DNA of 64,000 nucleotides from a virus, in the IMG/VR virus record IMGVR_UViG_3300035034_002581. One strand, 5' to 3'. The position numbers and the translations under genes were made by a program. Positions 4,801 through 63,137 of the stretch are shown here, piece after piece. Every line of letters begins with the position of its first letter. Position 1 is the first letter of the stretch. The notes beneath the pieces are model-generated. The model was not told where the DNA came from, made no database searches, and saw only the letters and a list, made by a program, of their open reading frames with translations.

Positions 4801-6870
4801 TTACCGTCTGGGTATAAATACGAGGATCGGTTCTGTAAGAGGCTTACTAACTGACTTTTTGCGAGAGAAATGATCTCGACCTGCACTCAAGTAAAAGGTT
4901 TCAACGAGCTCAAGACCAGCAGACTTAGCAGATTCAATCACGTCCTTCTCAAGCGCACGTGAGATATTGATGACGACCCTTCCATTATGTGCTAAATGAT
5001 TTTTAGCACGTGTAAGCGTAGGCACTAAGTACAGATCTTTCCAGGCATCAATATTCGGATAATCTCTCCAGCATTGTCCAGGTTCATCAAAGTATTTTTC
5101 AAGATCAAAATACGGTGGGCTTGTAAATACTAGGTCAAAACTGTTGTACTCATCAAATTTGACACATTCACTACCCGATTTAATGACACTAACTTGATTG
5201 ATGAATTTCCCTTTTTTGAGCTTGTTGCCCAAAGCAGTTAATTCATGAGACAAAGACACACCAGGTTCTGTACACGTATAAGAACCTTCGGGAAACATCG
5301 CTGCAAATCCAAGCATTCTAGCGCCGAATCCGCCAGAAGGATCCCACACAGAGGGTTTTTCTAAGTGCCCTAAAAACCTTTGATAGATCACGGCAGCGGC
5401 AGTTGGCTTGAAAAAACTCACAGCTTTTCTTTGTACAATAAATCCCCGTCTGATTGTGCTAAAGCTTATGTCGAAGTGTTCGTTAGTAGAAAACATTTCG
5501 CCATTGTCAAGTTGATATTCGTACTTTTTTGAGTTGTTTATTCCGAGACGATATCTAAGCACTGCATTGAATGATTTATCATCCATAAAAGATGCCACAG
5601 GACCATCAGACACATGCCAAAAAGATTTGATGTGTTCCTTTAGATATGCATTTCCAACGACTCCGAGTGAACTAATCGGTTCTTTGTGACAATCTCGCAG
5701 ACCAATCTTTCTGACGCTTACCAGAGTCTCTCTCAGGCTTTTCCTTGATTTGGGATAGAACCAATCATTAGCGCTTACAAAAGCTCTCATAAACTCGCGT
5801 ATAGCAGGCAGATAAACGTTTTCTGTCCACTCTTTCCCTTTGCCTCCAAGTTCTACATGGTTTTGTTCAATAAGCTTGCTTCGCGTCAAAAAGCGCGTCT
5901 TGTCATCGAATTTTTGTCTTTCATCTTTAATGATAGAACCTGATATGTCCTGGTGATAATATGCTAAGTCAATGAGTTCCTGAATTGTTGTTGCGTTTTT
6001 CCAGTTACATGTGCTGTTGATTCGTATCAGTGACTTCTCTTCAAGTTTTGCGATCTCGTTCTTTTTAAGATCATTTGTCATTCCTGATAGTTGTGAGACT
6101 GTGAAGTTCTCGCTTCGATCTAAGCCGTGCCAAAATACGCCATCGAATTCAATCAGCAAGTTATGTGAAGGTATGAAAGCGTCAAAACATTTCGTGTATT
6201 CTGCACTATTGACCCAGTAACTATCAACTACTTTATCATTCTTTGACGCTGCTGTCAATACTTTGATGAAAGCTTGTTCTTTCTTCGATGTGTTTGTTAG
6301 ATTTCTTGACATGTTTGCGAGCGAGATCTTCTTCTTAAATTCATCTGTGAAAATCTTCTTGTACATTTCATCATAGTTCTCTCGCCAGACTTTCTTACGC
6401 AGTTTTGATATAGATTCTGTGGTCCAACCATTGTCTACATATTGTGTCTTTCTTTTAAGCTCCCAACGTTCTCTCTTTTCATTGTCTTGCCAGGCTGCTT
6501 CTAGTGATTTTGAGATCTTTGCCTTTATTGACTTACTGTTCTCTTTATAAGCACGCCTAATTGCAACATTTCTGTCTTTGACTTGTTCTTTCGTAAACGT
6601 AGGCTGTTTGTTTGCTGTGAATCTATTGTTGTGCCCATTGACGTATTCGCCAAAACAATACTTTGTCTTCTTCCACTTGACGTCTTCTCCGCAACCGCAT
6701 TTACACTTCGGATTAATTCCGTTAAGGTAAAACTGCAAGACATAACTTTGAATATCGTATCCATTGTGTGATCTTGCAAGGTGATTGCCGAGTGATCTTC
6801 TATTTTTACAATACTTTTCACAGAGCTTGCATGTATGATCATCGAACAGTTTTAAATAGTTAAGTGACAT
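4801..6870 (-). CDS. Multidomain protein: N-terminal C2H2-type zinc finger, Vsr/DUF559-like PD-(D/E)XK endonuclease domain and C-terminal SAM-dependent DNA (N6-adenine or N4-cytosine) methyltransferase
   Basis: A 689-aa ORF with three recognisable parts. The N-terminus has HTCKLCEKYC...HLARSH and CKCGCG...C zinc-ligand patterns. At aa 228-250, FDAFIPSHNLLIEFDGVFWHG matches the Vsr core (PDF...GCFWHG). At aa 510-518, DPSGGFGAR is motif I, and at aa 583-587, FTSPPYF is motif IV (DPPY class). Confidence 0.6.
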   Translation of the reverse strand: MSLNYLKLFDDHTCKLCEKYCKNRRSLGNHLARSHNGYDIQSYVLQFYLNGINPKCKCGCGEDVKWKKTKYCFGEYVNGHNNRFTANKQPTFTKEQVKDRNVAIRRAYKENSKSIKAKISKSLEAAWQDNEKRERWELKRKTQYVDNGWTTESISKLRKKVWRENYDEMYKKIFTDEFKKKISLANMSRNLTNTSKKEQAFIKVLTAASKNDKVVDSYWVNSAEYTKCFDAFIPSHNLLIEFDGVFWHGLDRSENFTVSQLSGMTNDLKKNEIAKLEEKSLIRINSTCNWKNATTIQELIDLAYYHQDISGSIIKDERQKFDDKTRFLTRSKLIEQNHVELGGKGKEWTENVYLPAIREFMRAFVSANDWFYPKSRKSLRETLVSVRKIGLRDCHKEPISSLGVVGNAYLKEHIKSFWHVSDGPVASFMDDKSFNAVLRYRLGINNSKKYEYQLDNGEMFSTNEHFDISFSTIRRGFIVQRKAVSFFKPTAAAVIYQRFLGHLEKPSVWDPSGGFGARMLGFAAMFPEGSYTCTEPGVSLSHELTALGNKLKKGKFINQVSVIKSGSECVKFDEYNSFDLVFTSPPYFDLEKYFDEPGQCWRDYPNIDAWKDLYLVPTLTRAKNHLAHNGRVVINISRALEKDVIESAKSAGLELVETFYLSAGRDHFSRKKSVSKPLTEPILVFIPRR

Positions 6871-6935
6871 TTAGACCTCTATACATTCTATTGAGACTTA
6901 CTTCCTTGTATAGGTATCATGACATCAATGATCGA

Positions 6936-6972
6936 GAAAACAAAAAAGGCGTCCTCTTTGCAGAGGACGCCT
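6936..6972 (-). terminator. Rho-independent terminator after the major capsid protein gene
   Basis: On the minus strand the sequence reads aaggcgtcctct-gcaa-agaggacgcctt (a 12-bp perfect stem with a 4-nt loop), followed immediately by TTTTTTGTTTT. It lies 20 nt downstream of the MCP stop codon. Confidence 0.8.
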
Positions 6973-6992
6973 TGATTAAAGTGCTGCCAGAA

Positions 6993-8918
6993 TTAGATAA
7001 TGTTAAGGTCGAGAACCGTAACTGTACCGTAGAAGTCGGCACGTACCATCTTCTTGCCGTATCTGGTCATAACACCTTTACGTGGTGTGAAGTCTTCCGG
7101 AGCGAAGATTGTTGGTGTCACGATGAGTGGGACATACGGAGCATAGACGTATCCAGTCTCGAGGTATGAACCGCCCTTGTAACCAACAAGGATCTTCTGG
7201 CGTGGGAAGTATGGGTCCTTGTAGACCGTGAATCTGTTAGTAAGTGTACCAACGGATTCTGCACCAATGCTGAATGGCGCGCCAACCTGTCCCATTCCAT
7301 CGATTGAAAGCTGCGGCTTGTAAAGCACGGAGGACTCAAGGATGGTGCAGATGTCAGGTGAAGTCACGATGAAGTTCGCGGAACCTCGAAGTGTCTTTCT
7401 GTGAATCTGGTTAGCAACGTCGATGATTGTCTCAGTTAGCGTCTCGTACCATTCGCGGACGTTACCGGTGAATGTAGGACCTGTTGCAAGTGTGCTAGAA
7501 AGATTCTGGACTACGCCATTTGTCTTGTTAACGAACTTACCAGGAGCACGTGACCAGTAGAAGTTTGCACCACGAGCTTCAGTTAGAAGGTCGTTGAGGA
7601 TCTCACGGTCGATCTCAAGAGCAATCTGCTCAGAAAGAATCTGTGTAAGTTCAACTTCTGCGTCGAGGCTGTGGTACGCGTTGAGGTCCTGAGCAAGCTC
7701 TGGAGACCAACGAGCACGTAGCTTACGAGTTGTTGCTGTAACGGCAATTGACTCAACCTTGATGTCGATTTCAGGAATCTGTGGCGATGGTGAAGTCGCG
7801 AAGTCAGACTCGAAACTTGGGATAGTGAGCGTTGAAGCATCACTGTCTACATCAAGGGATGCACCGATTGCGTAAGAACCTGTGAGACCAACAGCAGCAG
7901 TAGTGTTAGCAGCCTTCTCCGGAACATAAGCACCGGAGACGACAACTAGAATCGCAGCGCCTGTATCAGAACGCCCAACTAGTGGGTTAGGTGTGAAGAC
8001 TCCGCCTGTGTACGTACCAAGCTGGTTGAGACGACGTAGGTTAAGAATGTTCTTGCCACCCTGGAAGGTGTCTGTAAGAGGTGTGAGACCTGCAGTAGTT
8101 GGAGCTTCTGAGAATACGGAGAAGTCCTTGATGTTACTAAGGTCAACATCAGATCCAATCTGGTTAAGGTTGAACACGAGGAACTGCCAGCGGCCAGATG
8201 CGTCATAAGTACCATCTGCTGCGTCTTCTTCGATTAGCGTACCAATCTGCGGGTCGAACATTGTAAGACGACCGTCTGTACCAGTTGCGTGCATCGAAGC
8301 ACCACCAGTAAGCGTCTGTCCAACACCCCAAGAACCAGAAGCAAGAAGCGCGAGCTCATTGCCAGTAGTTGTTGCGTGTACCTTCGAGAACGTAGAACCT
8401 ACGAGGTCGTACTGTCCACCAGTTGCAAGTGAACCGGAACGAACACCCTTGCCTGTTGGAGAGTTGTAAATCGACTGACCTGCACGGTAAGTCTCTGCCG
8501 ACGCAGCGCCTTCAGCACCAGTCTGGAGACTTGCGTCACCACCGACATTTGTACCATACGTGTAGTCAAGGTAGAATAGGAGGCCAGATGGAAGGCTCAT
8601 TGGCTGAATTGAGACGAGCTCATTCGCTACGAGACCACCGAAAACACGACGAACGATTGGGAACGCAATGTTACTGAATCCTCTGATGTCGCCAGATCCT
8701 GTTCCGCCACCACCGCCAGTTGACAATGTGCTGGTTTCTCTAAGAAGCTGAGACGCCTGGTTTTCAAGGAGACGCGACATAACTTCGCGCTTCTCTTCCT
8801 TTAGGTTACGAAGAAGACCTGTACGGCTCCACTTCTCAACCAATCGCTGACCACCATTTCTTAGGTGACGAGAGCGAATACCCTCAGTCAGCTGCTCTAA
8901 TGTAAAATCTTTACCCAT
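6993..8918 (-). CDS. Major capsid protein (T4 gp23 family)
   Basis: A 641-aa ORF. The segments IVRRVFGGLVANELVSIQPMSLPSGLLFYL, ELAQDLNAYHSLDAEVELTQILSEQIALEIDREILN and YKGGSYLETGYVYAPYVPL...TRYG align to the remembered gp23 blocks (VRRAIPNLIAFDICGVQPMNSPTGQVFAL; ELAQDLRAVHGMDADAELSGILATEIMLEINREVVD; GYKGPNEMDAGIYYAPYVAL...TRYG). Confidence 0.85.
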   Translation of the reverse strand: MGKDFTLEQLTEGIRSRHLRNGGQRLVEKWSRTGLLRNLKEEKREVMSRLLENQASQLLRETSTLSTGGGGGTGSGDIRGFSNIAFPIVRRVFGGLVANELVSIQPMSLPSGLLFYLDYTYGTNVGGDASLQTGAEGAASAETYRAGQSIYNSPTGKGVRSGSLATGGQYDLVGSTFSKVHATTTGNELALLASGSWGVGQTLTGGASMHATGTDGRLTMFDPQIGTLIEEDAADGTYDASGRWQFLVFNLNQIGSDVDLSNIKDFSVFSEAPTTAGLTPLTDTFQGGKNILNLRRLNQLGTYTGGVFTPNPLVGRSDTGAAILVVVSGAYVPEKAANTTAAVGLTGSYAIGASLDVDSDASTLTIPSFESDFATSPSPQIPEIDIKVESIAVTATTRKLRARWSPELAQDLNAYHSLDAEVELTQILSEQIALEIDREILNDLLTEARGANFYWSRAPGKFVNKTNGVVQNLSSTLATGPTFTGNVREWYETLTETIIDVANQIHRKTLRGSANFIVTSPDICTILESSVLYKPQLSIDGMGQVGAPFSIGAESVGTLTNRFTVYKDPYFPRQKILVGYKGGSYLETGYVYAPYVPLIVTPTIFAPEDFTPRKGVMTRYGKKMVRADFYGTVTVLDLNII

Positions 8919-53737: not shown

Positions 53738-54064
53738 CTACTCCCCCTGTTCTTCAATTGCTGTCGTATCTATAGCTGCTGTCATTGAATTAGCAACATA
53801 GAGTATTGCATCTCTAGTCATACTTATGTCCTCGATCGCCCGCCGGACTTCAGGACTATCGAAAAATATGTCTTTTTCAAGTAGTTTAGACAGGGAATCA
53901 TACCTTTCATCAAAAATATCAAGAGAGGCTTCGATCGCTGATTGGACGTCCAGGATTACTAAGCCCCACTTGTAGTTAATTAACAAAGAAGCTAATAGAA
54001 GCACAGCAAGAGAAATTGTCATAGAAATCAAGGCTGCGAACCACAGTGTTGGTATTTGAATCAC
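53738..54064 (-). CDS. Small membrane protein (single N-terminal TM helix)
   Basis: A 108-aa ORF. LWFAALISMTISLAVLLLASLLI is a predicted transmembrane segment. Confidence 0.4.
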   Translation of the reverse strand: MIQIPTLWFAALISMTISLAVLLLASLLINYKWGLVILDVQSAIEASLDIFDERYDSLSKLLEKDIFFDSPEVRRAIEDISMTRDAILYVANSMTAAIDTTAIEEQGE

Positions 54065-55227
54065 TTAAAATATCCATCTAGTTCTTTGTTATACTTTTCT
54101 TCAACTGAAGCCTGACTAAACTCTTTCTGTATCTTCACACTTAATTCTTTAGCCCAATCAGCTGGTGCTTCAGAGCCATTTCTAAACTTTTTGATTTTTT
54201 TCTTAAAATCTTTCTCGTTTGGCTGTGCCCAGCTAGTATTGGGAAGAAAAATTTGATTGTCAACTCTTTCTTTTGGAATCGGTATCATAGAGTAGTTAAT
54301 TTTTATGAACTTACCTAGATTCATAAAATCTAGATGTCCAGACCAGTTTGTTGCTACGACTGGCAAACCTGAAGCGGCGGCTTCTAGAATTGGTAGACCG
54401 AAGCCTTCGCCCCTTGTTAGATTGACTAGAGCTTTTACATCGTCTCTTCTATAGAGACCAACCATCTCTGATGTTGTCATATTGCCGTGCAGTAAATACA
54501 CAGCAGGATACTGTCCTTTTCTGTTCTCTTGTAAGAATCGATTTAACATTACCTGTGTGTTCTTTCTATCAATAGAAGTGTTTCTGCTGCTATTTGTTTT
54601 CAATATGATACCTACATTAGGATCGTTATGAAAAGCATCACAGAGCCACTTCAGGGTTCCGAAAGTATTCTTTCTATCGCTATTGCTATCGTTACCTGTA
54701 ATTTGGCCGACCATTAGAAAATTAAAGCTAGTACTAAGCTCAAGATCAAGAGATGATGTGTCTTCATCAAATACATCTTCAAAAAACGATTCATGAATAA
54801 CAGAGACTTTTGTGCTTGTCTTTCCTGTTCTTTCAATTGTTTCTTTGACATGGCTTGATGGAACAACTACGTGATTCATCGAATTACAGCATGCTAACCA
54901 CTCTGGATTACATTTATCTGTCTCTACAAAAGCTGATACGCCGATGTTCGTCTTTGCCAATGCGGGATCCCACTCATTAGGTAACAAAACCTGGACTGAT
55001 ACGTCAGCATGATGTTGAACACTAATTGACGTGGAACACGCCATAATTTTTCCAATTAGCCCTTTCTCAACGTCAGGATCTAAATACCAGGAAGTTCTTC
55101 CCCACGGAACGATCTGTGTTATTAGCTTAATGTCATTTCGATTTGAAAGCCATCGAAATATTTGTCTGGAGTGGACGCCATATCCACTAGCTGATAGTAG
55201 CGGTGCACGAAGAATAACTGTCTTCAT
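54061..55227 (-). CDS. Glycosyltransferase, GT4 family
   Basis: The ORF-track start at 55320 overlaps the upstream gene. The likely start is MKTVILRAP at 55227. GEGFGLPILEAAASGLPVVATNWSGHLDF is an E-x7-E GT4 motif. Confidence 0.65.
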   Translation of the reverse strand: MKTVILRAPLLSASGYGVHSRQIFRWLSNRNDIKLITQIVPWGRTSWYLDPDVEKGLIGKIMACSTSISVQHHADVSVQVLLPNEWDPALAKTNIGVSAFVETDKCNPEWLACCNSMNHVVVPSSHVKETIERTGKTSTKVSVIHESFFEDVFDEDTSSLDLELSTSFNFLMVGQITGNDSNSDRKNTFGTLKWLCDAFHNDPNVGIILKTNSSRNTSIDRKNTQVMLNRFLQENRKGQYPAVYLLHGNMTTSEMVGLYRRDDVKALVNLTRGEGFGLPILEAAASGLPVVATNWSGHLDFMNLGKFIKINYSMIPIPKERVDNQIFLPNTSWAQPNEKDFKKKIKKFRNGSEAPADWAKELSVKIQKEFSQASVEEKYNKELDGYFK

Positions 55228-55228
55228 A

Positions 55229-56485
55229 TTATTTCCCCTCGATCTTTGTGCAAGACCATCTTGTGTAGTTTTCTTTCCAGTTCTTGATTGTGTCTTTGAG
55301 AGTTTCATCCCACTTATCAATTGTGTCTTGATGATTAAACTCAGACTTTACATAATCTATGCACTTCTTGCCTAGCTCTTTTCGACCTTCTGGTCCAAAG
55401 TTGTACATTTTTAAGAACCCCTCAGCTACTGTCTCTATAGTAACGTAGTCTTCGTAAATGTAAGGTACTTGTTGGGATCCGACTAGTGATTTTGTTTCAA
55501 CGGGTAGAGCGACTCCGTTCTCAGAACCATCTCTGTGATCCACAACTTGTCGTGTCAAACCACCGGTCTTTACAGCAATGATGGGTGTTCCAGTTTGCAT
55601 AGCCTCAAGGGTACCAAGACCAAAACCTTCTGCAAAAGAAATATTTACATAGCAGTCAGCAATGTTGTGAAGAACATTTATTTTTTCAAAGTTCAATCTA
55701 TCTCGCGAGAAGATAATGTTAGGGACAACGCCGAATGCTTCAGCGGTCGCAAAAAGATTAGGACCCTCAGAATCAGTAGGATCTGTGTGCATAATGAGAG
55801 ATGCATTTCTATGACCATGTTCTTCTTCAAGTCTGTCAAGGAATTTTGCCCAAGATGCAATAACATCGTTTGGGCGCTTCCGCTTCGCGTTTCTATTAAT
55901 CCAGAGAGCAACGAAATGATCTTTGCGATCTGGACCTAGAATCTGTGGTTTGAGTGTCTTGATTGCGTCGTCTTCAAGTTTAAAAAACAATTCTTCTGGC
56001 AAAGAGTGTGGTATAAAGTTTGTCTTTTCTGGAAAGTTCTCTGAAACCATCTCGAATGTAAGATGTGAATGACAGTTGATAAGATCTGTTGCATCATACA
56101 AAGGATTGTTGAAGATTGGTGTAGGCCTATTATCCCAGACATGCCACCAGACTATTGGGCAAATCTGATGTATCTCGTCTTCCATTTCAAACAACCATAT
56201 GAAGAACCTTGGATCTGTGAAGATAAAAAGTGCGTCGGGTTTTTCTTGAGCAAGAATTAAGCGAAGCATATCCGGACTTCCAAATCCATCAATTGGTTTG
56301 ATGATAAAGTCTGGATTTACGACGGTGACATTATAGTCTTGATGCTTAATTGCTGCACCGAGTTGCCTAAATGTCCAGTCACCTTTCTTGATTAGTCCGT
56401 TGATTAAGTGTCTACTCTGTGTACCTACGCCTGACGTTGATAGTGCGTGGTCAGAGATCATCAAAATCTTTTTCTTTTCTGACAT
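55229..56485 (-). CDS. Glycosyltransferase, GT4 family
   Basis: A 418-aa ORF with AEGFGLGTLEAMQTGTPIIAVKTGGLTRQV. Confidence 0.65.
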   Translation of the reverse strand: MSEKKKILMISDHALSTSGVGTQSRHLINGLIKKGDWTFRQLGAAIKHQDYNVTVVNPDFIIKPIDGFGSPDMLRLILAQEKPDALFIFTDPRFFIWLFEMEDEIHQICPIVWWHVWDNRPTPIFNNPLYDATDLINCHSHLTFEMVSENFPEKTNFIPHSLPEELFFKLEDDAIKTLKPQILGPDRKDHFVALWINRNAKRKRPNDVIASWAKFLDRLEEEHGHRNASLIMHTDPTDSEGPNLFATAEAFGVVPNIIFSRDRLNFEKINVLHNIADCYVNISFAEGFGLGTLEAMQTGTPIIAVKTGGLTRQVVDHRDGSENGVALPVETKSLVGSQQVPYIYEDYVTIETVAEGFLKMYNFGPEGRKELGKKCIDYVKSEFNHQDTIDKWDETLKDTIKNWKENYTRWSCTKIEGK

Positions 56486-57424: not shown

Positions 57425-58336
57425 TTAATACTTTAAGATCATATCTACAAGCTTGAACTTTGGTGCCCAGCCGAGCATTAATTTTCCCTTTGTATTGTCT
57501 GCTCGTGTCTCTTGAGCCTCACCTGGTCGCTCGGGCACATTTACTTGGTTATCACTAATCATGTCAGCTATCTGATTTACAGAGTAATTCATTCCTGTGC
57601 CGACATTAACTACTTGGTGTGGTATATCTTTCTTAAAGACATCTGCTGTACTCTTAGATGAAGCTACTATGTTTGCCGAGACAACATCGTCGACATAAGT
57701 AAAATCGCGTCTTTGCTCTCCGTCACCGACGATAGTTAGTGGCTCGCCTGCTTCTTTTTGGCGCTTAAATATGCCAATGACAGGTGCGTACCTCCCCTTT
57801 AATGGTTCACGAGGACCATAGACATTAAAGTATCTCAATACGACAGTTTCAATTCCATGCATTCTAGAATATAGCTTACAAACTTGCTCTCCTTGATATT
57901 TAGAAAGAGAGTACGGGTTAAGACAGTCTGATGTCATATTTTCTCTATGTGGTGCATTCTGTTGCCCATAAAAAGAAGAGCTACCGGCATATACAACACG
58001 CTTTACTCCGTGCTTAACGGCAGCTTCTAAGACACATTGAGTGCCTATAACATTGTTTTCAAATGTATGACGTGCTTCATTGAATGCAGGTTGAATTCTT
58101 GAACGTGCCGCCAAGTGAAATACAACATCAACACCCTTGTATAGCTTTACTGTAGATGGATCAGATATATCTTTGTTGACATACTTGACCTTCTTTAGTT
58201 TTGTAAATTCAAAGAACTCACCATTTTCAGGCGCGCTTTCATCGTCTATAACGATGACTTCATGCCCATCTTTTGCAAGTGCCTCTGTTAGGTGGGATCC
58301 AATAAATCCCTTTCCACCTGTCACTAAGTATTTCAT
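57425..58336 (-). CDS. NAD-dependent epimerase/dehydratase (SDR), UDP-glucuronate decarboxylase (UXS) / GalE-like
   Basis: A 303-aa ORF. The N-terminus LVTGGKGFIGSHLTEALAKDGHEVIVIDD is a Rossmann motif resembling UXS [28 protein letters not shown]. YSLSK is the YxxxK motif. Confidence 0.6.
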   Translation of the reverse strand: MKYLVTGGKGFIGSHLTEALAKDGHEVIVIDDESAPENGEFFEFTKLKKVKYVNKDISDPSTVKLYKGVDVVFHLAARSRIQPAFNEARHTFENNVIGTQCVLEAAVKHGVKRVVYAGSSSFYGQQNAPHRENMTSDCLNPYSLSKYQGEQVCKLYSRMHGIETVVLRYFNVYGPREPLKGRYAPVIGIFKRQKEAGEPLTIVGDGEQRRDFTYVDDVVSANIVASSKSTADVFKKDIPHQVVNVGTGMNYSVNQIADMISDNQVNVPERPGEAQETRADNTKGKLMLGWAPKFKLVDMILKY

Positions 58337-58363: not shown

Positions 58364-58750
58364 TTAGTCTTCTGACACTGCTCGACCTGTCATACTTAAC
58401 CAATCTCTTTCTTCGAATGGCCTAACTTCATCATTCTTTTTATTGACTGCATGTAAGACAAGAGGTTGTACATCAAGAGATTTAGCAAGAGAAATCATTG
58501 CATTGACGTCTTTTGGAAAACAATTGTGAGTCACGACGCAAGAATTTTCTTCAACCCAGAATAGATCATCTTCAGTATGCGATTGAGAAACTAGTTCAAG
58601 ATTGTAGACTTGGCCTGAAAACTTTTCCCTCGTAATACTTTTTATTTTGGTTTCGCTAATAGGCCCTGCGTTCTGAGGTTCAAATCGTCTATCTGACTCT
58701 CTAGCGACCTGTTTGAATTTCTTTACATTTTCTGTCATATTGTGACTCAT
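58364..58750 (-). CDS. Downstream half of the fractured ugd gene: C-terminal intein segment (IntC, about 76 aa) followed by a truncated Ugd C-extein of 52 aa that begins at the catalytic Cys
   Basis: GQVYNLELV is block F. DDLFWVEENSCVVTHN|C is block G, ending in HN followed by Cys+1. The extein CFPKDVNAMISLAKSL matches the Ugd active-site region GG(S)CFPKDVLNLVYL. The ATG overlaps the upstream endonuclease stop codon (ATGA). Confidence 0.6.
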   Translation of the reverse strand: MSHNMTENVKKFKQVARESDRRFEPQNAGPISETKIKSITREKFSGQVYNLELVSQSHTEDDLFWVEENSCVVTHNCFPKDVNAMISLAKSLDVQPLVLHAVNKKNDEVRPFEERDWLSMTGRAVSED

Positions 58751-59087
58751 ATTAGTACACCTAGTTTTTGTAAGTCATCCTTGAACAACATAATCAAGTT
58801 GATTTCAGGATTGTCTCGTGTTATCTGGTCGAACTTTTTACGCTGGATGCTAAAGCGGTATTTGTTTTTGACTTCAACGTACGCATTCCAATCTGTAAGG
58901 TAAAAGTCGGGGAAGTAAGTTCGCTTTATTGCCCATCGAAGTATTTAATTGTACCTCTATGGGCAATAAAGTTTATTTCTTGTTTATCTAGCCACGTTGC
59001 AAATGCGAGCTCCCACGTTCCTTGCACTTTGATAGTTTCGCCTGTTCTTTTAGAAAGACTACTTGCATCATACTTTATAAACGTCAT
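58747..59087 (-). pseudogene. Free-standing PD-(D/E)XK (Vsr / DUF559-like) homing endonuclease gene lying between the split-intein halves, with its frame disrupted
   Basis: The ATG at 59087..59085 overlaps the TGA of the upstream ORF (ATGA). Frame 1 encodes MTFIKYDASSLSKRTGETIKVQGTWELAFATWLDKQEINFIAHRGTIKYFDGQ*. A frame shifted by +2 then encodes ...TYFPDFYLTDWNAYVEVKNKYRFSIQRKKFDQITRDNPEINLIMLFKDDLQKLGVLI*, with PDF...(E)VK motifs, and its stop overlaps the next ATG. Removing the 26 nt at 58912-58937 restores a single 105-aa ORF. Confidence 0.55.
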
Positions 59088-60277
59088 GATGAAATCAAAG
59101 TGAATTTTGGAGCCGTACTCTCAACTGTAAATAATATGTCTGTTTCTAGGACATCCTCGGCTTTGACAATTAGATGTTGTCCATCTCTTTTAATAGGCAT
59201 CAAATGTTCAGGTGTGCACTTAAAGAGTATGTTTTCACCTGGACGTCCGATGTCAAATACAATAAGCTCACCTTCAAAATCATTGCGAGTGACATCAGAT
59301 ACTCGCTTCCCGCCCCTGGTAAGGCTTTTACAGCCTGGATTGGCGCTCTTTATTTTAAAGTAGTCTTTTGGCGGCATTGAATGAAAAAGTTCATATAACT
59401 CTTCGATTGTAACCTTACCTTCATATACATCATGGATATCACGATCAGTAATATCAGCTCCATTGCTTCCTGGTATGACGTAAGATAGGTACATTGCAGA
59501 AATTAATGAATCACCAGGAACGCAATGACCGCCGAATCCTAGCGAACCATCTGGACCAGGTACTGTCAAATGTGTATCACCGATCCTCTCATCATGAAGT
59601 GTATACTCAACAACTTTATCATAGTCAATGTTGATAGCATCACATATCTGCTTCATTTCATTTGCAAATGATACCTTAGTTGCAAGGAAGCAATTAGTGA
59701 AGTACTTGACAAACTCTGCTTCTGTTGAACCTGTTTTTACTATTGTGACATTAGGAAAAGCTGCTGAGAATACTTGCTTAACTATTGTTGATGCTGGACG
59801 AGGACCACCAATAATAATCCTGTTCTGTTCTCGCATATCGTCGATAGCGTTTGCCTCTGTCAAGAATTCAGGATTAAAGACAACTGTCAGGCCTGAACTT
59901 CTGTACTTGGCATTCCAGATCTTTGTTGTTCCAGGTGGTATCGTTGACTTTACTACTGCGATCCTATCTCCTGGAATTTCTGAAAGCTCATCAAGTACAG
60001 ATTCAACTATTCTTATGTCTGCTGAGCCATCTTTTCTCATTGGCGTTGGGACACAAACAAAGTAGATTTTAGACTGTGCTCTTTCAAGCGTTTGAACTAA
60101 TTCGTGAACAGACTGCTGGTGAGCGTATCGCCTATGAGGCTTTAGATAGTTATTTCCTTTATCAAATGCAAAAACGTTAAAACCACGTTCTAAAAACACT
60201 GTAGCTAGGCTACCACCTACAAACCCTTGGCCAATTACACCTATTGTATCTTCTTTGTTTTTCACAAATTCTCCCAT
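59084..60277 (-). CDS. ugd: Upstream half of the fractured ugd gene: UDP-glucose 6-dehydrogenase N-extein (about 251 aa) fused to an N-terminal intein segment (IntN, about 146 aa)
   Basis: The NAD-binding motif is IGVIGQGFVGGSLA. The sequence ...LGFGGH immediately precedes C|VPGDSLIS (Hint block A), and TPEHLMPI is block B. The ORF stops 146 aa after the intein start, with no endonuclease domain in frame. Confidence 0.65.
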   Translation of the reverse strand: MGEFVKNKEDTIGVIGQGFVGGSLATVFLERGFNVFAFDKGNNYLKPHRRYAHQQSVHELVQTLERAQSKIYFVCVPTPMRKDGSADIRIVESVLDELSEIPGDRIAVVKSTIPPGTTKIWNAKYRSSGLTVVFNPEFLTEANAIDDMREQNRIIIGGPRPASTIVKQVFSAAFPNVTIVKTGSTEAEFVKYFTNCFLATKVSFANEMKQICDAINIDYDKVVEYTLHDERIGDTHLTVPGPDGSLGFGGHCVPGDSLISAMYLSYVIPGSNGADITDRDIHDVYEGKVTIEELYELFHSMPPKDYFKIKSANPGCKSLTRGGKRVSDVTRNDFEGELIVFDIGRPGENILFKCTPEHLMPIKRDGQHLIVKAEDVLETDILFTVESTAPKFTLISS

Positions 60278-61230
60278 TCAAACTCGATCATTTCTTCGAT
60301 CATTTCTTCAAAAGTGATCTCAGGTTTCCATCCTAATTCTTTTTCTGCAAGAGTATAACTTCCTATCAATGTATTAACTTCAGCTGGTCTAAAAAACTTA
60401 GGATTTATGATTATCTTATCTTCATAGTTTTCAACACCTGCAATCTTAAACGCAACTTCTACTAAATCTCTTACAGATCTTGTTTGTCCAGTTGATAACA
60501 CAAAGTCTCTTGGTTCATGATGTTGCAACATCGTGTGCATTCCTCTGACAAAATCTTTTGCGTGCCCCCAGTCTCTACGTGCCTCAAGGTTTCCGAGTTC
60601 AAGAACATGTTGGTCGCCATTAGCAATTTTTACTGCTGCTTTACAGACTTTTCTAGTAACAAAGTCTCCGCCTCTTCTTGGGGATTCATGGTTGAAAAGT
60701 ATTCCAGAACATGCGAACATGTTGTAAGCTTCTCTATAGGTTTTCACCATGTGATGTGCAAAAAGCTTACTAACTGCATAAGGTGATCTGGGATTAAACG
60801 GTGTGTCTTCATTTTGAGGAACTTCAATAGCGTTTCCAAACAGCTCTGATGTTGACGCTTGGTACACTTTTGAATTGAAATTTGATATTCTTACTGATTC
60901 GAGAATGTTAAGGGCACCCTGCGCTGTGACGGCGGCTGTAAAGTGAGGCATCTCGAATGATTTTCCAACATGAGATTGTGCTGCAAGATTGTAAATCTCA
61001 TGTGGTCGGACCCGTTGGATGGTGGAGCAGACATGACTAAAGTCTGTCAAATCGCCTTGGATCAATGTTATCTTGTCAAGTATGTGCTTAATGTTGACAT
61101 ACTCACTCTCTGTTGTCGAGTGCCTTACAAGACCGTGAACTTCATATCCCATTTCGAGCAGATGCTCTGCAAGATAAGAACCGTCTTGACCCGCGATACC
61201 TGTAATTAGTGCGCGCTTAGCAGCTTTCAA
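60262..61230 (-). CDS. gmd: GDP-mannose 4,6-dehydratase
   Basis: A 322-aa ORF. KRALITGIAGQDGSYLAEHLLEMGYEVHGLVRHSTT is the typical GMD N-terminus. YAVSK is the YxxxK motif. Confidence 0.75.
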   Translation of the reverse strand: MKAAKRALITGIAGQDGSYLAEHLLEMGYEVHGLVRHSTTESEYVNIKHILDKITLIQGDLTDFSHVCSTIQRVRPHEIYNLAAQSHVGKSFEMPHFTAAVTAQGALNILESVRISNFNSKVYQASTSELFGNAIEVPQNEDTPFNPRSPYAVSKLFAHHMVKTYREAYNMFACSGILFNHESPRRGGDFVTRKVCKAAVKIANGDQHVLELGNLEARRDWGHAKDFVRGMHTMLQHHEPRDFVLSTGQTRSVRDLVEVAFKIAGVENYEDKIIINPKFFRPAEVNTLIGSYTLAEKELGWKPEITFEEMIEEMIEFEWENL

Positions 61231-62204
61231 TTCACACCTCCAATTGTTTCTATTATACTGCGAAAGCTGTCAAATGATTCAGGCATGAAAAGCTTACTAA
61301 CTTTATCATACGCATATTCAACGTCAGATCTCACAGTGTCAAGAATGTCATGCTCATAGATGAATTCGTCTTTGATACATTCATCACCAAAAATACTATG
61401 AGGAGCCAGAATTGATGACGCAATTCCAACATCAGTTGAAACTATAGGTGTTTTAGATGCAGCACATTCAACAACAGACTGTGGTCCACCCTCGTACCTT
61501 GATGCTACTATGTATAAGTCTAAAGCGTTGTACATTACATTAAGGGTTTTCTCTCGAGGCATTTCGTTAAATGTATACTTGATCCCTTTAGATTCGAGTC
61601 TTGATATAACATATTGACGTCTCCATGCTCCCAAAAGTACTTCTACATCGCGATCTGTGTGCTCAACTATGTTTTCTACAATATTACAGAAGAGGTCTGG
61701 TCCTTTTTCAAGCTTGGGCTGAGTGAGATTGCGCCCCATTGTATCCCGCTGAAATGATCCGATTACGAACCTGTCCTCTTTAATTCCGAGACTCTTTCTT
61801 GCAGAACTTTTGTCAATCGGAAACCACAGTTCTTGATTGACCCAGGGTAGAATAAGCTTAATAGGTTTTGGATTAGCTACTAAGTGATTCTGTATTTCTT
61901 CAATTTGCTTTTTTGACTTTAGACTCGGTGCATGATACAAGTCAACGTACTGATCTCTTTTTGCAAAGTCATTTAAACTATGATTGGTGAACCTTTCGGG
62001 AACAGCATGCCACATCGTGACAATAACTTTCTTCTTCTTCAATAGGTCGAGAGATATGTGATTCCAACACCATCCAGCAAGTAACCAGATTAAGTCAGCT
62101 TCTTCTGGTGTACTTACAATTATGTCTTTGTTGTTTTCATTAAATTCCGATACAAGCCTATCTACAACCCAGTTTTCTTTGGGCGCTAGCATGAATATTT
62201 TCAT
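61227..62204 (-). CDS. Glycosyltransferase (GT4-like)
   Basis: A 325-aa ORF with SRYEGGPQSVVECAASKTPIVSTDVG. Confidence 0.5.
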   Translation of the reverse strand: MKIFMLAPKENWVVDRLVSEFNENNKDIIVSTPEEADLIWLLAGWCWNHISLDLLKKKKVIVTMWHAVPERFTNHSLNDFAKRDQYVDLYHAPSLKSKKQIEEIQNHLVANPKPIKLILPWVNQELWFPIDKSSARKSLGIKEDRFVIGSFQRDTMGRNLTQPKLEKGPDLFCNIVENIVEHTDRDVEVLLGAWRRQYVISRLESKGIKYTFNEMPREKTLNVMYNALDLYIVASRYEGGPQSVVECAASKTPIVSTDVGIASSILAPHSIFGDECIKDEFIYEHDILDTVRSDVEYAYDKVSKLFMPESFDSFRSIIETIGGVN

Positions 62205-62240: not shown

Positions 62241-63137
62241 TCAACGTACAAACATTTCTTCATACTGATCTGCTACTGTCCCTATTTCAAGATCGGTAGT
62301 ATCAAATGATGGAATATCTCGTAGTTCAAAGTTTGATAAGTCAAGTTTCGGAGGATTATCATAGTCTACTAGTTCGAACTTATACTCAGTTTCTGGAACG
62401 ATTATTCCTCTATCCCTTACAAGTTCATCAGTTCCACCTGCAGTAGTACAAATTACTGGGCAGCCTTGTGATAGCGCTTCAACAACTACATTTGGGCAAT
62501 GATCTAGCCAAGCTAAATGGATGAACCAGTCGGCCTGATTGTATATTTCTAGACACGACGCATGATCTATGTTACCTAGTACGATTTCATTACTTCTGAA
62601 ACCTAACGGAGATGTGGCGTTAGATCCCATTATGAGAAGCACATCGTCTTCTTCTTGTACTTGACGAAATAGTAAAAGGTTTTCTGTCAGTCTTTTTTGG
62701 TTGTGCCAGTTTGCAGAACATACGAATTTCCTTCCCTTGATGTGGCTTAGTGGGTAATTAGAAACAGGTTGGGGTTTAACATCAATTCCATTTCTAATTA
62801 CCCTCCCAGACCTTTTACCCCAATGATGCTCAGACATGTTCCTGTCAAAGTTAGACTGCCAAATCACCTGTTCAGCGTTATCATATGTCCACTTAATCCC
62901 AACGTTATGTGTAATGAATTCGTCAGGTTTAAACCAAATTCCGTCAAGTCTTTGAATAAATTTTGCGTGTGCTGGAGGTCGAGATGCAGCTTCTATAAAA
63001 GCTAGAAATACTTCGCACTCTTCAGGATTGCCTGTTATTTTATGGCCTCTTCTTGTTAGTTCACGCCCTAGCCTATATGCAAATGAGTTAGGTCCTGAAC
63101 GTGAGTTAAAATTGACATTTGAAAAGTGAATAATCAT
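62241..63137 (-). CDS. Glycosyltransferase (GT4-like)
   Basis: A 298-aa ORF with HLAWLDHCPNVVVEALSQGCPVICTTAGGTDELV. Confidence 0.5.
   Translation of the reverse strand: MIIHFSNVNFNSRSGPNSFAYRLGRELTRRGHKITGNPEECEVFLAFIEAASRPPAHAKFIQRLDGIWFKPDEFITHNVGIKWTYDNAEQVIWQSNFDRNMSEHHWGKRSGRVIRNGIDVKPQPVSNYPLSHIKGRKFVCSANWHNQKRLTENLLLFRQVQEEDDVLLIMGSNATSPLGFRSNEIVLGNIDHASCLEIYNQADWFIHLAWLDHCPNVVVEALSQGCPVICTTAGGTDELVRDRGIIVPETEYKFELVDYDNPPKLDLSNFELRDIPSFDTTDLEIGTVADQYEEMFVR

Follow-up and report, generated by a model that had tools for sequence, protein, structure and literature searches.

The window analysed here is a 64,000-nucleotide (nt) stretch of viral DNA (IMG/VR record IMGVR_UViG_3300035034_002581). 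It carries a gene for a UDP-glucose 6-dehydrogenase-like protein (Ugd; gene ugd) that is divided between the two halves of an intein, with the remains of an endonuclease gene between them. The locus lies at 58364-60277, and every gene of the region is on the minus strand; all coordinates are window positions. An initial annotation, made from the open reading frames (ORFs) and motifs, had placed the break exactly at the catalytic cysteine, and both the coordinates and the motifs bear this out. ORF1 continues past ...LGFGGH for exactly 146 further residues (CVPGDSLIS...CTPEHLMPI...FTLISS), and ORF3 reads ...VYNLELV...CVVTHN and then CFPKDVNAM.... The features of the locus are listed below, with lengths in amino acids (aa).

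60277..59084, minus strand: ORF1, 397 aa, made of a 251-aa Ugd-like N-extein and a 146-aa N-intein
59525..60277, minus strand: N-extein, short Ugd-like nucleotide-sugar dehydrogenase, 251 aa, C-terminal end ...LGFGGH
59087..59524, minus strand: N-intein half (IntN), 146 aa, Cys1 CVPGDSLIS ... block B CTPEHLMPI ... FTLISS
59086-59084, minus strand: stop codon TGA of ORF1, directly after IntN
58747..59087, minus strand: endonuclease remnant (predicted pseudogene), three-frame translation
58750..58364, minus strand: ORF3, 128 aa, made of a 76-aa C-intein and a 52-aa C-extein
58523..58750, minus strand: C-intein half (IntC), 76 aa, a 33-aa extension, then KIKSITREKFSGQVYNLELV (block F) ... CVVTHN (block G)
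58364..58522, minus strand: C-extein, 52 aa plus stop, catalytic Cys first, CFPKDVNAMISLAKSL...GRAVSED

The frames are joined by two ATGA overlaps. The first, at 59087-59084, places the remnant ATG (59087-59085) over the ORF1 TGA (59086-59084), and the second, at 58750-58747, places the ORF3 ATG (58750-58748) over the remnant TGA (58749-58747). Both overlaps had been claimed and both are real, as is the stretch of 146 intein residues, with CVPGDSLIS and TPEHLMPI, at the end of ORF1. A scan for promoters and terminators inside the locus gave no more sites than shuffled sequence. Loci of this kind are at present annotated as a truncated "UDP-glucose 6-dehydrogenase" and hypothetical ORFs.

The joined dehydrogenase and the two intein halves

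Residues 11-257 of ORF1 match the NAD-binding and central domains of Ugd (PF03721, E 3.6e-27; PF00984, E 1.2e-19), and the Ugd part also matches TIGR03026 (E 1.9e-56; 191.6 bits, with a cut-off of 189.8). ORF3 continues the PF00984 match, with profile positions 2-68 in ORF1 and 60-93 in ORF3 (E 4e-4), and the C-extein also matches positions 267-299 of the AglM Ugd model. Canonical Ugd C-extein queries, run by tblastn against the whole window, matched at 58522..58427 only. Joined, the exteins give a protein of 303 aa and 33.6 kDa that retrieves thousands of colinear intein-less proteins of 300-315 aa, with 60-67% identity over 96-98% of the query. The junction GFGGH/CFPKD (here and below, a slash marks the intein boundary) aligns without a gap to these homologues, for example P0001 (GFGGHCFPKD; ...GFGGHCFPKDLNAIV...). 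The active-site motif GFGGHCFPKD, which follows the family pattern G-G-x-C-[FL]-P-K-D, is formed only by joining both halves.

The intein-less 300-315-aa homologues all carry PF03721 and PF00984. The UDP-binding C-terminal domain, PF03720, is absent from ORF3, from all of the ~300-315-aa homologues and, by tblastn, from the whole window. Because homologues of equal length also lack PF03720 and none is found elsewhere in the window, the host is, on these alignments, not a truncated Ugd but complete, as one of a widespread family of short two-domain proteins. The name Ugd is therefore a family label for the host. The short family is very large (P0001-P0120 are among the homologues) and consists of the NAD-binding and central domains with no PF03720.

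To compare the intein, IntN and IntC were fused and aligned from nine loci found by scans for the junction pattern. A word-indexed homology search with IntN alone missed even the identical P0049 and was replaced by degenerate DNA patterns of the junctions and exhaustive phmmer searches. Across the alignment of 9-10 divergent loci, Cys1, C-T-x-x-H..P (block B), V-Y-N-x-x-L (block F), T-H-N and Cys+1 are invariant; at these blocks the window has C1, C-T-P-E-H, V-Y-N-L-E-L and T-H-N/C. The other loci share only 34-41% intein identity with the window, and the splicing residues are all kept. Comparison with the contiguous intein P0122 places the split at the canonical loop between blocks B and F. 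ORF3 is composed, as first described, of C-intein and C-extein. Blocks F and G had been put at its very start, whereas ~47 residues precede block F in a C-intein of 76 aa; 33 of these form an extension unique to the window and to its sister genome L009 (below).

A profile of the intein family, searched against the PDB, matched solved inteins and almost nothing else (Mja KlbA, E 9.5e-12; Pab PolC (PolII), E 2.2e-11; the NrdJ-1 split intein, E 1.6e-6; gp41-1, E 0.03). Of the profile searches that the initial annotation had called for, the one for Ugd was significant, the curated intein hidden Markov models (HMMs) stayed below threshold, and nothing was found for Vsr or DUF559. The fused window halves were modelled with AlphaFold2 (AF2) from an alignment of 12 sequences, with a predicted local distance difference test score (pLDDT) of 83.2 and a predicted TM-score (pTM) of 0.80. 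The core of the model exceeds a pLDDT of 90, the IntC strands lie within the Hint fold at 90-98, and disorder is confined to residues ~135-175, the tail of IntN and the extension of IntC, which form the linker at the split site. A single-sequence AlphaFold model of the fused intein was uninformative (pLDDT 33). When the AF2 model was searched against the PDB with Foldseek, ranks 1-37 were all inteins or Hint domains, among them the split inteins NrdJ-1 and Aes123 PolB1 in fused form; against mini-inteins, the TM-scores normalised to the target (TMt) were 0.7-0.8. In the model, both halves jointly form the Hint fold. Electrostatic complementarity has been proposed as important for the association of split-intein halves (Dassa et al. 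2009, PMC2677866); simple net charges make none evident here, and we set this aside as evidence.

The same residues bear on a reading in which the intein halves only hold the Ugd fragments together, non-covalently and with high affinity, and no splicing occurs. Phage enzymes made in fragments can function although no covalent bond joins the pieces (PMC3045599; discussion in Dassa et al.); a comparable case is a ribonucleotide reductase whose fragments are assembled via interaction domains derived from a mobile element (PMC3045599). However, Cys1, the block-B T..H, the penultimate His, the terminal Asn and Cys+1 are invariant in every locus, which would be unexpected if the chemistry were dispensable, and a Hint domain of ~220 aa at the catalytic Cys would probably block the active site. 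Docking without splicing is in our view quite improbable.

The endonuclease remnant

The ATG of the remnant opens a 53-aa frame at 59087..58926 (MTFIKY...KYFDGQ), with its stop at 58928-58926. Relative to L009, one nucleotide is deleted from the window at 58932/58931, and the downstream remainder lies in another frame (...KRTYFPDFYLTDWNAYVEVKNKY...LGVLI) that ends at the TGA at 58749-58747. By inspection, no obvious Shine-Dalgarno sequence stands before the remnant ATG. With the frame restored, the product is 113 aa, not the 105 aa given earlier, and the catalytic E...PD...ExK residues are still encoded. These 113 aa match DUF7487 (E 3e-7; 31 bits, with a gathering score of 27), phrog_15137 (1e-13), TnsA_N and PHROG 'endonuclease' families. 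Phage_endo_I (PF05367) is matched at E 1e-4 by the restored remnant and at 22-27 bits across the remnant and its homologues, just under the cut-off of 29.1.

Full-length relatives in related loci are 253-258 aa long and have three parts: an N-terminal zinc-ribbon-like motif with four cysteines, a basic region that by inspection resembles the NUMOD3 DNA-binding motif, and a C-terminal domain (VQGTWEL...YYPDF...YVDIK). The window remnant aligns only to the first six and the last ~105 residues of these proteins, so that it is an internal-deletion derivative; it lacks ~140 aa, comprising the zinc ribbon and the basic region, that are found in all full-length homologues. Searched against the PDB, the endonuclease family profile found T7 endonuclease I (1m0d/1fzr; E 3.7e-5) as the only significant solved relative. 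The C-terminal ~90 aa align to this enzyme with the PDF and V(E/D)xK motifs in register. The assignment to the PD-(D/E)xK enzymes thus holds, whereas the DUF559-Vsr-like part of the earlier label found no Pfam or PDB match. In Pfam, neither Vsr (PF03852) nor DUF559 (PF04480) was matched at E up to 1 by the remnant or at E up to 0.1 by three full-length homologues, and in the PDB profile search, with E up to 10, neither a Vsr nor an I-Bth0305I chain came up. We reject the label, since the motif is a canonical E...PD...(D/E)xK with Lys and these searches were empty. The full-length endonuclease had no match among the PADLOC defence systems. Its relatives in deposited phage genomes (T4-like coliphages, a Citrobacter phage and an Aeromonas phage) are only 25-32% identical. 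The family would be an undescribed third type of endonuclease for fractured genes, with homing as its candidate role.

Over 8.9 kb, the sister genome, L009 (IMG/VR 3300035698_022074), shares 99.4% identity with the window (45 substitutions), and it has the same stops and both ATGA overlaps. It is in frame at 58932/58931, but a net insertion of 5 nt near 59046-59063 breaks the N-terminal part of its endonuclease. The frameshifts of the two genomes differ, so neither shift is conserved. Between them, 13 of the 50 mutational events, including all three indels, fall in the 341 nt of the remnant out of 8898 nt compared (binomial p = 4e-8), and the remnant changes ~9 times faster than its flanks. 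As read from the two genomes, the endonuclease gene is decaying independently in each and is no longer under selection, and that of the window is no longer functional. The initial annotation was right about a split intein in a fractured ugd with an endonuclease-derived ORF between the halves, as the motifs, the profile and the Hint model indicate; the free-standing gene that it described is in fact deleted and frameshifted.

That the truncated endonuclease still works, as a 113-aa product made by frameshifting or as the 53-aa peptide, either in homing or in a new role, is very unlikely. The catalytic residues remain encoded and the frames are still translationally chained by the ATGA overlaps, but the zinc ribbon and basic region of every full-length homologue are gone, the two frameshifts differ with neither conserved, substitutions and indels accumulate at ~9 times the rate of the flanks, and the ATG has no obvious Shine-Dalgarno sequence ahead of it.

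One might also ask if the three ORFs are a contiguous, endonuclease-containing intein broken by sequencing or assembly errors. The middle ORF does hold one frameshift, and a third sequence, L003 (JGI 3300039191), which is identical to the window at 1829 of 1830 positions including the stops and the frameshift, may stem from the window's own data set. Against this, the two stop/start overlaps are shared by L009, which is a distinct genome; at least 25 divergent contigs from many samples repeat the three-ORF layout, in which the endonuclease has a frame and a start of its own; and homologous endonucleases are also free-standing elsewhere. We give an artefact almost no credence. Chance is excluded as well, since the stops and overlaps recur in L009 and the architecture in at least 25 divergent viral contigs.

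Recurrence of the intein and its known relatives

A scan of IMG/VR for the C-terminal junction T-H-N-C-F-P-K-D gave 16 loci. Seven of them (L006, L007/L011, L014-L018) have an N-half with IntN, a full-length endonuclease, and IntC with a C-half; in L008 the endonuclease is reduced to fragments of 40 aa and 66 aa. A search with the endonuclease family added L142-L145, L153, L156, L165 and L166, the last of which has a 77-aa open frame in the endonuclease's place, and at L153 the junctions (FGGK/C...THN/CLPKD) belong to another divergent dehydrogenase member. Overall, the same IntN/IntC pair surrounds an endonuclease ORF of 239-298 aa in at least 19 viral contigs of the ugd type and in eight of a second dehydrogenase type. 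In these eight loci (L147-150, L158-161) this intein and its endonuclease interrupt, again at the catalytic Cys, a nucleotide-sugar dehydrogenase family member that is 381 aa long once spliced (GMGDGG[AG]/C...HN/CHPRDN). Two loci from Logan assemblies, L001 and L002, found via P0046, have no endonuclease at all; their halves overlap by 26 nt, and their downstream epimerase and PD-(D/E)xK nuclease genes are the same as in the window. The window has no close DNA relatives in deposited phage genomes, and tblastn of the intein there gave no match.

The family also includes contiguous mini-inteins at this site, as exhaustive phmmer searches showed; among them are P0122 (465 aa), P0123-P0127 and P0130, and P0143 is one in a 593-aa dehydrogenase. 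They are ~150 aa long, have no endonuclease, and are likely the ancestral state of the split intein. An endonuclease homologue lies directly downstream of an intact, intein-less short ugd in L155, L157, L162-L164 and L168 (match at ~2501-2800 in most), and others are free-standing elsewhere. This suggests that the endonuclease family is linked to ugd even without the intein, as in intron-less or intein-less homing. In L014, the N-half of the fractured ugd has directly upstream of it a second endonuclease-like ORF of 255 aa (6913-7680), with two repeats of the GKKHSEE type, NUMOD3-like by inspection, and a PD-(D/E)xK motif (YVPDF...IEEVKG).

For the loci with a full-length endonuclease, the ratio of nonsynonymous to synonymous substitution rates (dN/dS) is 0.15-0.21 for the endonuclease, 0.06-0.53 for IntC and 0.27-0.73 for IntN, values that are approximate because dS is near saturation for distant pairs. 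Between L007 and L016, dS is 0.06 in IntN, 0.26 in the endonuclease and 0.5-1.1 in IntC and the C-extein; this ~17-fold spread suggests mosaicism by recombination or gene conversion around the element, as expected for homing.

The recurrence and the dN/dS values also speak to the view that ugd was simply inactivated by a mobile element and that the halves are relics with no functional dehydrogenase. The adjoining endonuclease is clearly decaying, phage glycan genes are often dispensable, and the exteins and intein of the window and L009 differ by too few substitutions to gauge selection. Nevertheless, both halves are intact ORFs in the two sister genomes, while the intervening 341 nt took all three indels and a ~9-fold excess of change; the splicing and catalytic residues are all kept; the split persists across lineages at 34-41% intein identity, and even after total loss of the endonuclease; and dN/dS is below 1 in the loci with a full-length endonuclease. 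A dead gene appears improbable.

The closest known systems are the fractured genes defined in 2009 from 26 ocean-metagenome loci, which comprise gp41, NrdA, NrdJ, IMPDH, DnaE, ligase and terminase, with endonucleases that are either GIY-YIG or Vsr-like and with intein halves of 88-105 aa (IntN) and 33-54 aa (IntC) (PMC2677866). As in gp41-1/8, NrdJ-1, NrdA-2 and IMPDH-1 of that set, the ugd locus has an N-extein with IntN, a free-standing endonuclease, and IntC with a C-extein, all on one strand of phage-like DNA. Here, too, the endonuclease frame overlaps the downstream frame, and endonuclease-less alleles exist (gp41-7 there, L001 here). The NrdJ-1 and gp41-1 inteins are relatives of the ugd intein by profile and fold. 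The differences are several. Their hosts are enzymes of DNA metabolism, whereas the host here is a sugar-nucleotide dehydrogenase; the endonuclease belongs to neither of their two families; IntN and IntC, at 146 and 76 aa, exceed their ranges; and an ATGA overlap stands upstream of the endonuclease, with no non-coding spacer or hairpin. An intact endonuclease gene separates the halves in the relatives L006, L007, L014-L018 and L141-L165 but not in the window, where the gene is a predicted pseudogene. This decayed state would be on the way to the endonuclease-less state represented by gp41-7.

Natural split inteins without an endonuclease, such as cyanobacterial DnaE and gp41-7, share the split between blocks B and F and the Cys1 and Cys+1 chemistry, and L001 and L002 are their direct equivalents at the ugd site. 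The halves here differ in being adjacent and probably co-transcribed, not at separate loci, and in the window a remnant lies between them. Endonuclease-fractured genes without an intein (nrdA of Aeromonas phage Aeh1 and the SbcD-like locus of Dassa et al.) resemble the ugd locus in that an endonuclease gene splits an enzyme into two adjacent ORFs. Their products assemble non-covalently, whereas the ugd locus has the full set of splicing motifs.

The endonuclease itself is comparable to T7 endonuclease I and to I-Ssp6803I, a type-II PD-(D/E)xK enzyme that works as a homing endonuclease (per Dassa et al., PMC2677866). The T7 enzyme aligns to the C-terminal ~90 aa; in contrast to it, the full-length endonucleases of the ugd loci, known here from sequence, add the zinc ribbon and the NUMOD3-like basic region. 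To the Vsr-like/EDxHD family (I-Bth0305I) there is no detectable similarity.

The initial annotation had regarded Ugd as an unusual host for an intein, which turned out to be mistaken. Ugd is listed as an intein host (PMC2874743), and ten inteins in UDP-glucose dehydrogenase (UDP-GlcDH) are known from Euryarchaeota (Novikova et al. 2016, PMC4760082). Our scan of cellular genomes for H-N-C-F-P-K-D gave at least 120 loci (L021-L140), and more than 100 genomes of bacteria and archaea have a contiguous intein at the catalytic Cys of Ugd. Among the matches listed, most are open frames of 700-1000 aa with the N-terminal junction ~450-500 aa upstream, and the carriers include Actinomycetota, Chloroflexota, haloarchaea, Aquificales, Nanoarchaeota and others. 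Five loci with a short frame upstream of HN/CFPKD (L026, L061, L071, L084 and L091) look like frameshifted contiguous inteins in high-GC metagenome-assembled genomes and were not counted as split. These cellular inteins (the 'UDP-GlcDH' host of InBase) use the same insertion point, G-G-x/C-F-P-K-D, with the catalytic Cys as +1. They differ in being single-ORF inserts of ~450-500 aa in full-length three-domain Ugd, whereas the phage family is a mini-intein lineage, contiguous or split, that sits mostly in short two-domain enzymes. Three viral contigs (L004, 1696-3637; L005, 4521-6453; L010, 276-2070) have large contiguous inteins at the same ugd site, with inserts of ~340-390 aa in frames of ~600-650 aa. 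These are LAGLIDADG-type by eye and represent a different lineage (...ANN[IM]LTHN/CFPKD). A literature search, necessarily incomplete, retrieved no paper that joins 'split intein' with Ugd terms. What is new here is the split, fractured form of the ugd intein in phages.

Proposed mechanism, genomic setting and significance

From the anatomy of the locus, the homologies, the fold, the conserved residues and the decay of the endonuclease described above, we consider it likely that the locus belongs with the fractured genes of Dassa et al. (2009), with ugd split by a trans-splicing split intein and the endonuclease decayed. In such a scheme, a class-1 intein would have come to sit immediately before the catalytic Cys of the phage's 303-aa short Ugd-like gene, and a free-standing homing-endonuclease gene, inserted in the loop between blocks B and F, would have split the intein coding region. 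Both halves would probably be co-transcribed and translated into an N-extein-IntN protein (397 aa) and an IntC-C-extein protein (128 aa). IntN and IntC would then associate into the Hint fold and the exteins would be ligated by protein trans-splicing, using Cys1, the Thr and His of block B, the penultimate His, the terminal Asn and Cys+1, which is also the catalytic Cys of the dehydrogenase. Since splicing would build the GFGGH-CFPKD active site, the enzyme would be active only after splicing.

Several points weigh against this interpretation. Expression, trans-splicing and enzyme activity are what we infer from the sequences. The intein Pfam model PF14890 scores the fused window halves at 23.0 bits (E 7.5e-5), with a gathering score of 35.8, and TIGR01443 (intein_Cterm) scores the window sequence alone at 14.1-14.4 bits, with a cut-off of 15.6. 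At 146 and 76 aa, the window halves exceed all others of the family in length, and these unusual lengths, together with the 33-aa IntC extension, which may affect the association of the halves, are the main reasons for caution. The substitutions between the window and L009 are too few to demonstrate purifying selection on the window copy. Finally, the host has no UDP-binding C-terminal domain of the canonical Ugd type, and its enzyme activity and substrate are thus putative.

As a trans-splicing fractured gene, the window locus would represent the stage of the homing cycle at which the endonuclease decays, between the loci with a full-length endonuclease and those with none; it is placed there because its endonuclease has no zinc ribbon and basic part and is frameshifted. 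Steps I-III of the gene-breaking model that Dassa et al. put forward correspond exactly to what is found here, with every stage seen in one intein family. A wider reading is that the 253-258-aa proteins are undescribed homing endonucleases acting on nucleotide-sugar dehydrogenase genes, that their insertion into a mini-intein created the split family, and that all stages have been preserved at one site. We regard the chances for and against this as evenly balanced.

The window comes from a T4-like phage; among its genes are those for a major head protein of the gp23 type, a wedge protein of the baseplate, a stabiliser of the tail sheath and a primase. The ugd locus is within a sugar-metabolism island that also holds a PD-(D/E)xK (PDDEXK_1) nuclease and the following genes.

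57425..58336, minus strand: NAD-dependent sugar epimerase/dehydratase, downstream of ugd, PF01370, E 8e-58
60262..61230, minus strand: GDP-mannose 4,6-dehydratase, upstream of ugd, PF16363, E 4e-122
61227-62204, 62241-63137, 55229-56485 and 54061-55320: four GT1/GT4 glycosyltransferases of the sugar island

The epimerase/dehydratase gene follows the C-half also in L001, L008, L009 and L019, a conserved synteny. Elsewhere in the window, a 689-aa ORF (4801-6870, minus strand) that adjoins the major head protein gene has a weak match to phrog_3339 'homing endonuclease' (E 1.9e-7) and resembles Vsr below threshold (PF03852, E 0.0085); possibly this is a second gene related to mobile endonucleases. 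The gp23-type capsid protein itself (6993-8918, minus strand; 641 aa) is matched by Pfam Gp23 in two stretches and has, in its N-terminal half, an extra segment of ~250 aa rich in Gly, Thr and Ala, which has no intein motifs and looks like an insertion domain.

The fractured-gene class is the source of the split inteins gp41-1, NrdJ-1 and IMPDH-1 used by engineers, and these three are, to our knowledge, the fastest split inteins. A sizeable new family with many divergent alleles would offer candidate orthogonal trans-splicing pairs with Cys1/Cys+1 chemistry. With the ugd loci, fractured genes extend from enzymes of DNA metabolism to a putative enzyme of phage glycan synthesis, and the arrangement becomes associated with what appears to be a third, so far undescribed, type of endonuclease. 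What the analysis adds is a large and apparently undescribed split-intein family, an undescribed family of candidate homing endonucleases and what looks like a complete evolutionary series. Since all intermediates of the gene-breaking model occur in one intein family at one site, the model becomes directly testable by phylogeny and biochemistry. If the reading as a new homing-endonuclease family is true, these loci would together trace, as a natural series, how split inteins arise, with the mini-intein, the fractured gene with an active endonuclease, the decaying state of the window and the endonuclease-less split intein all found at a single site.

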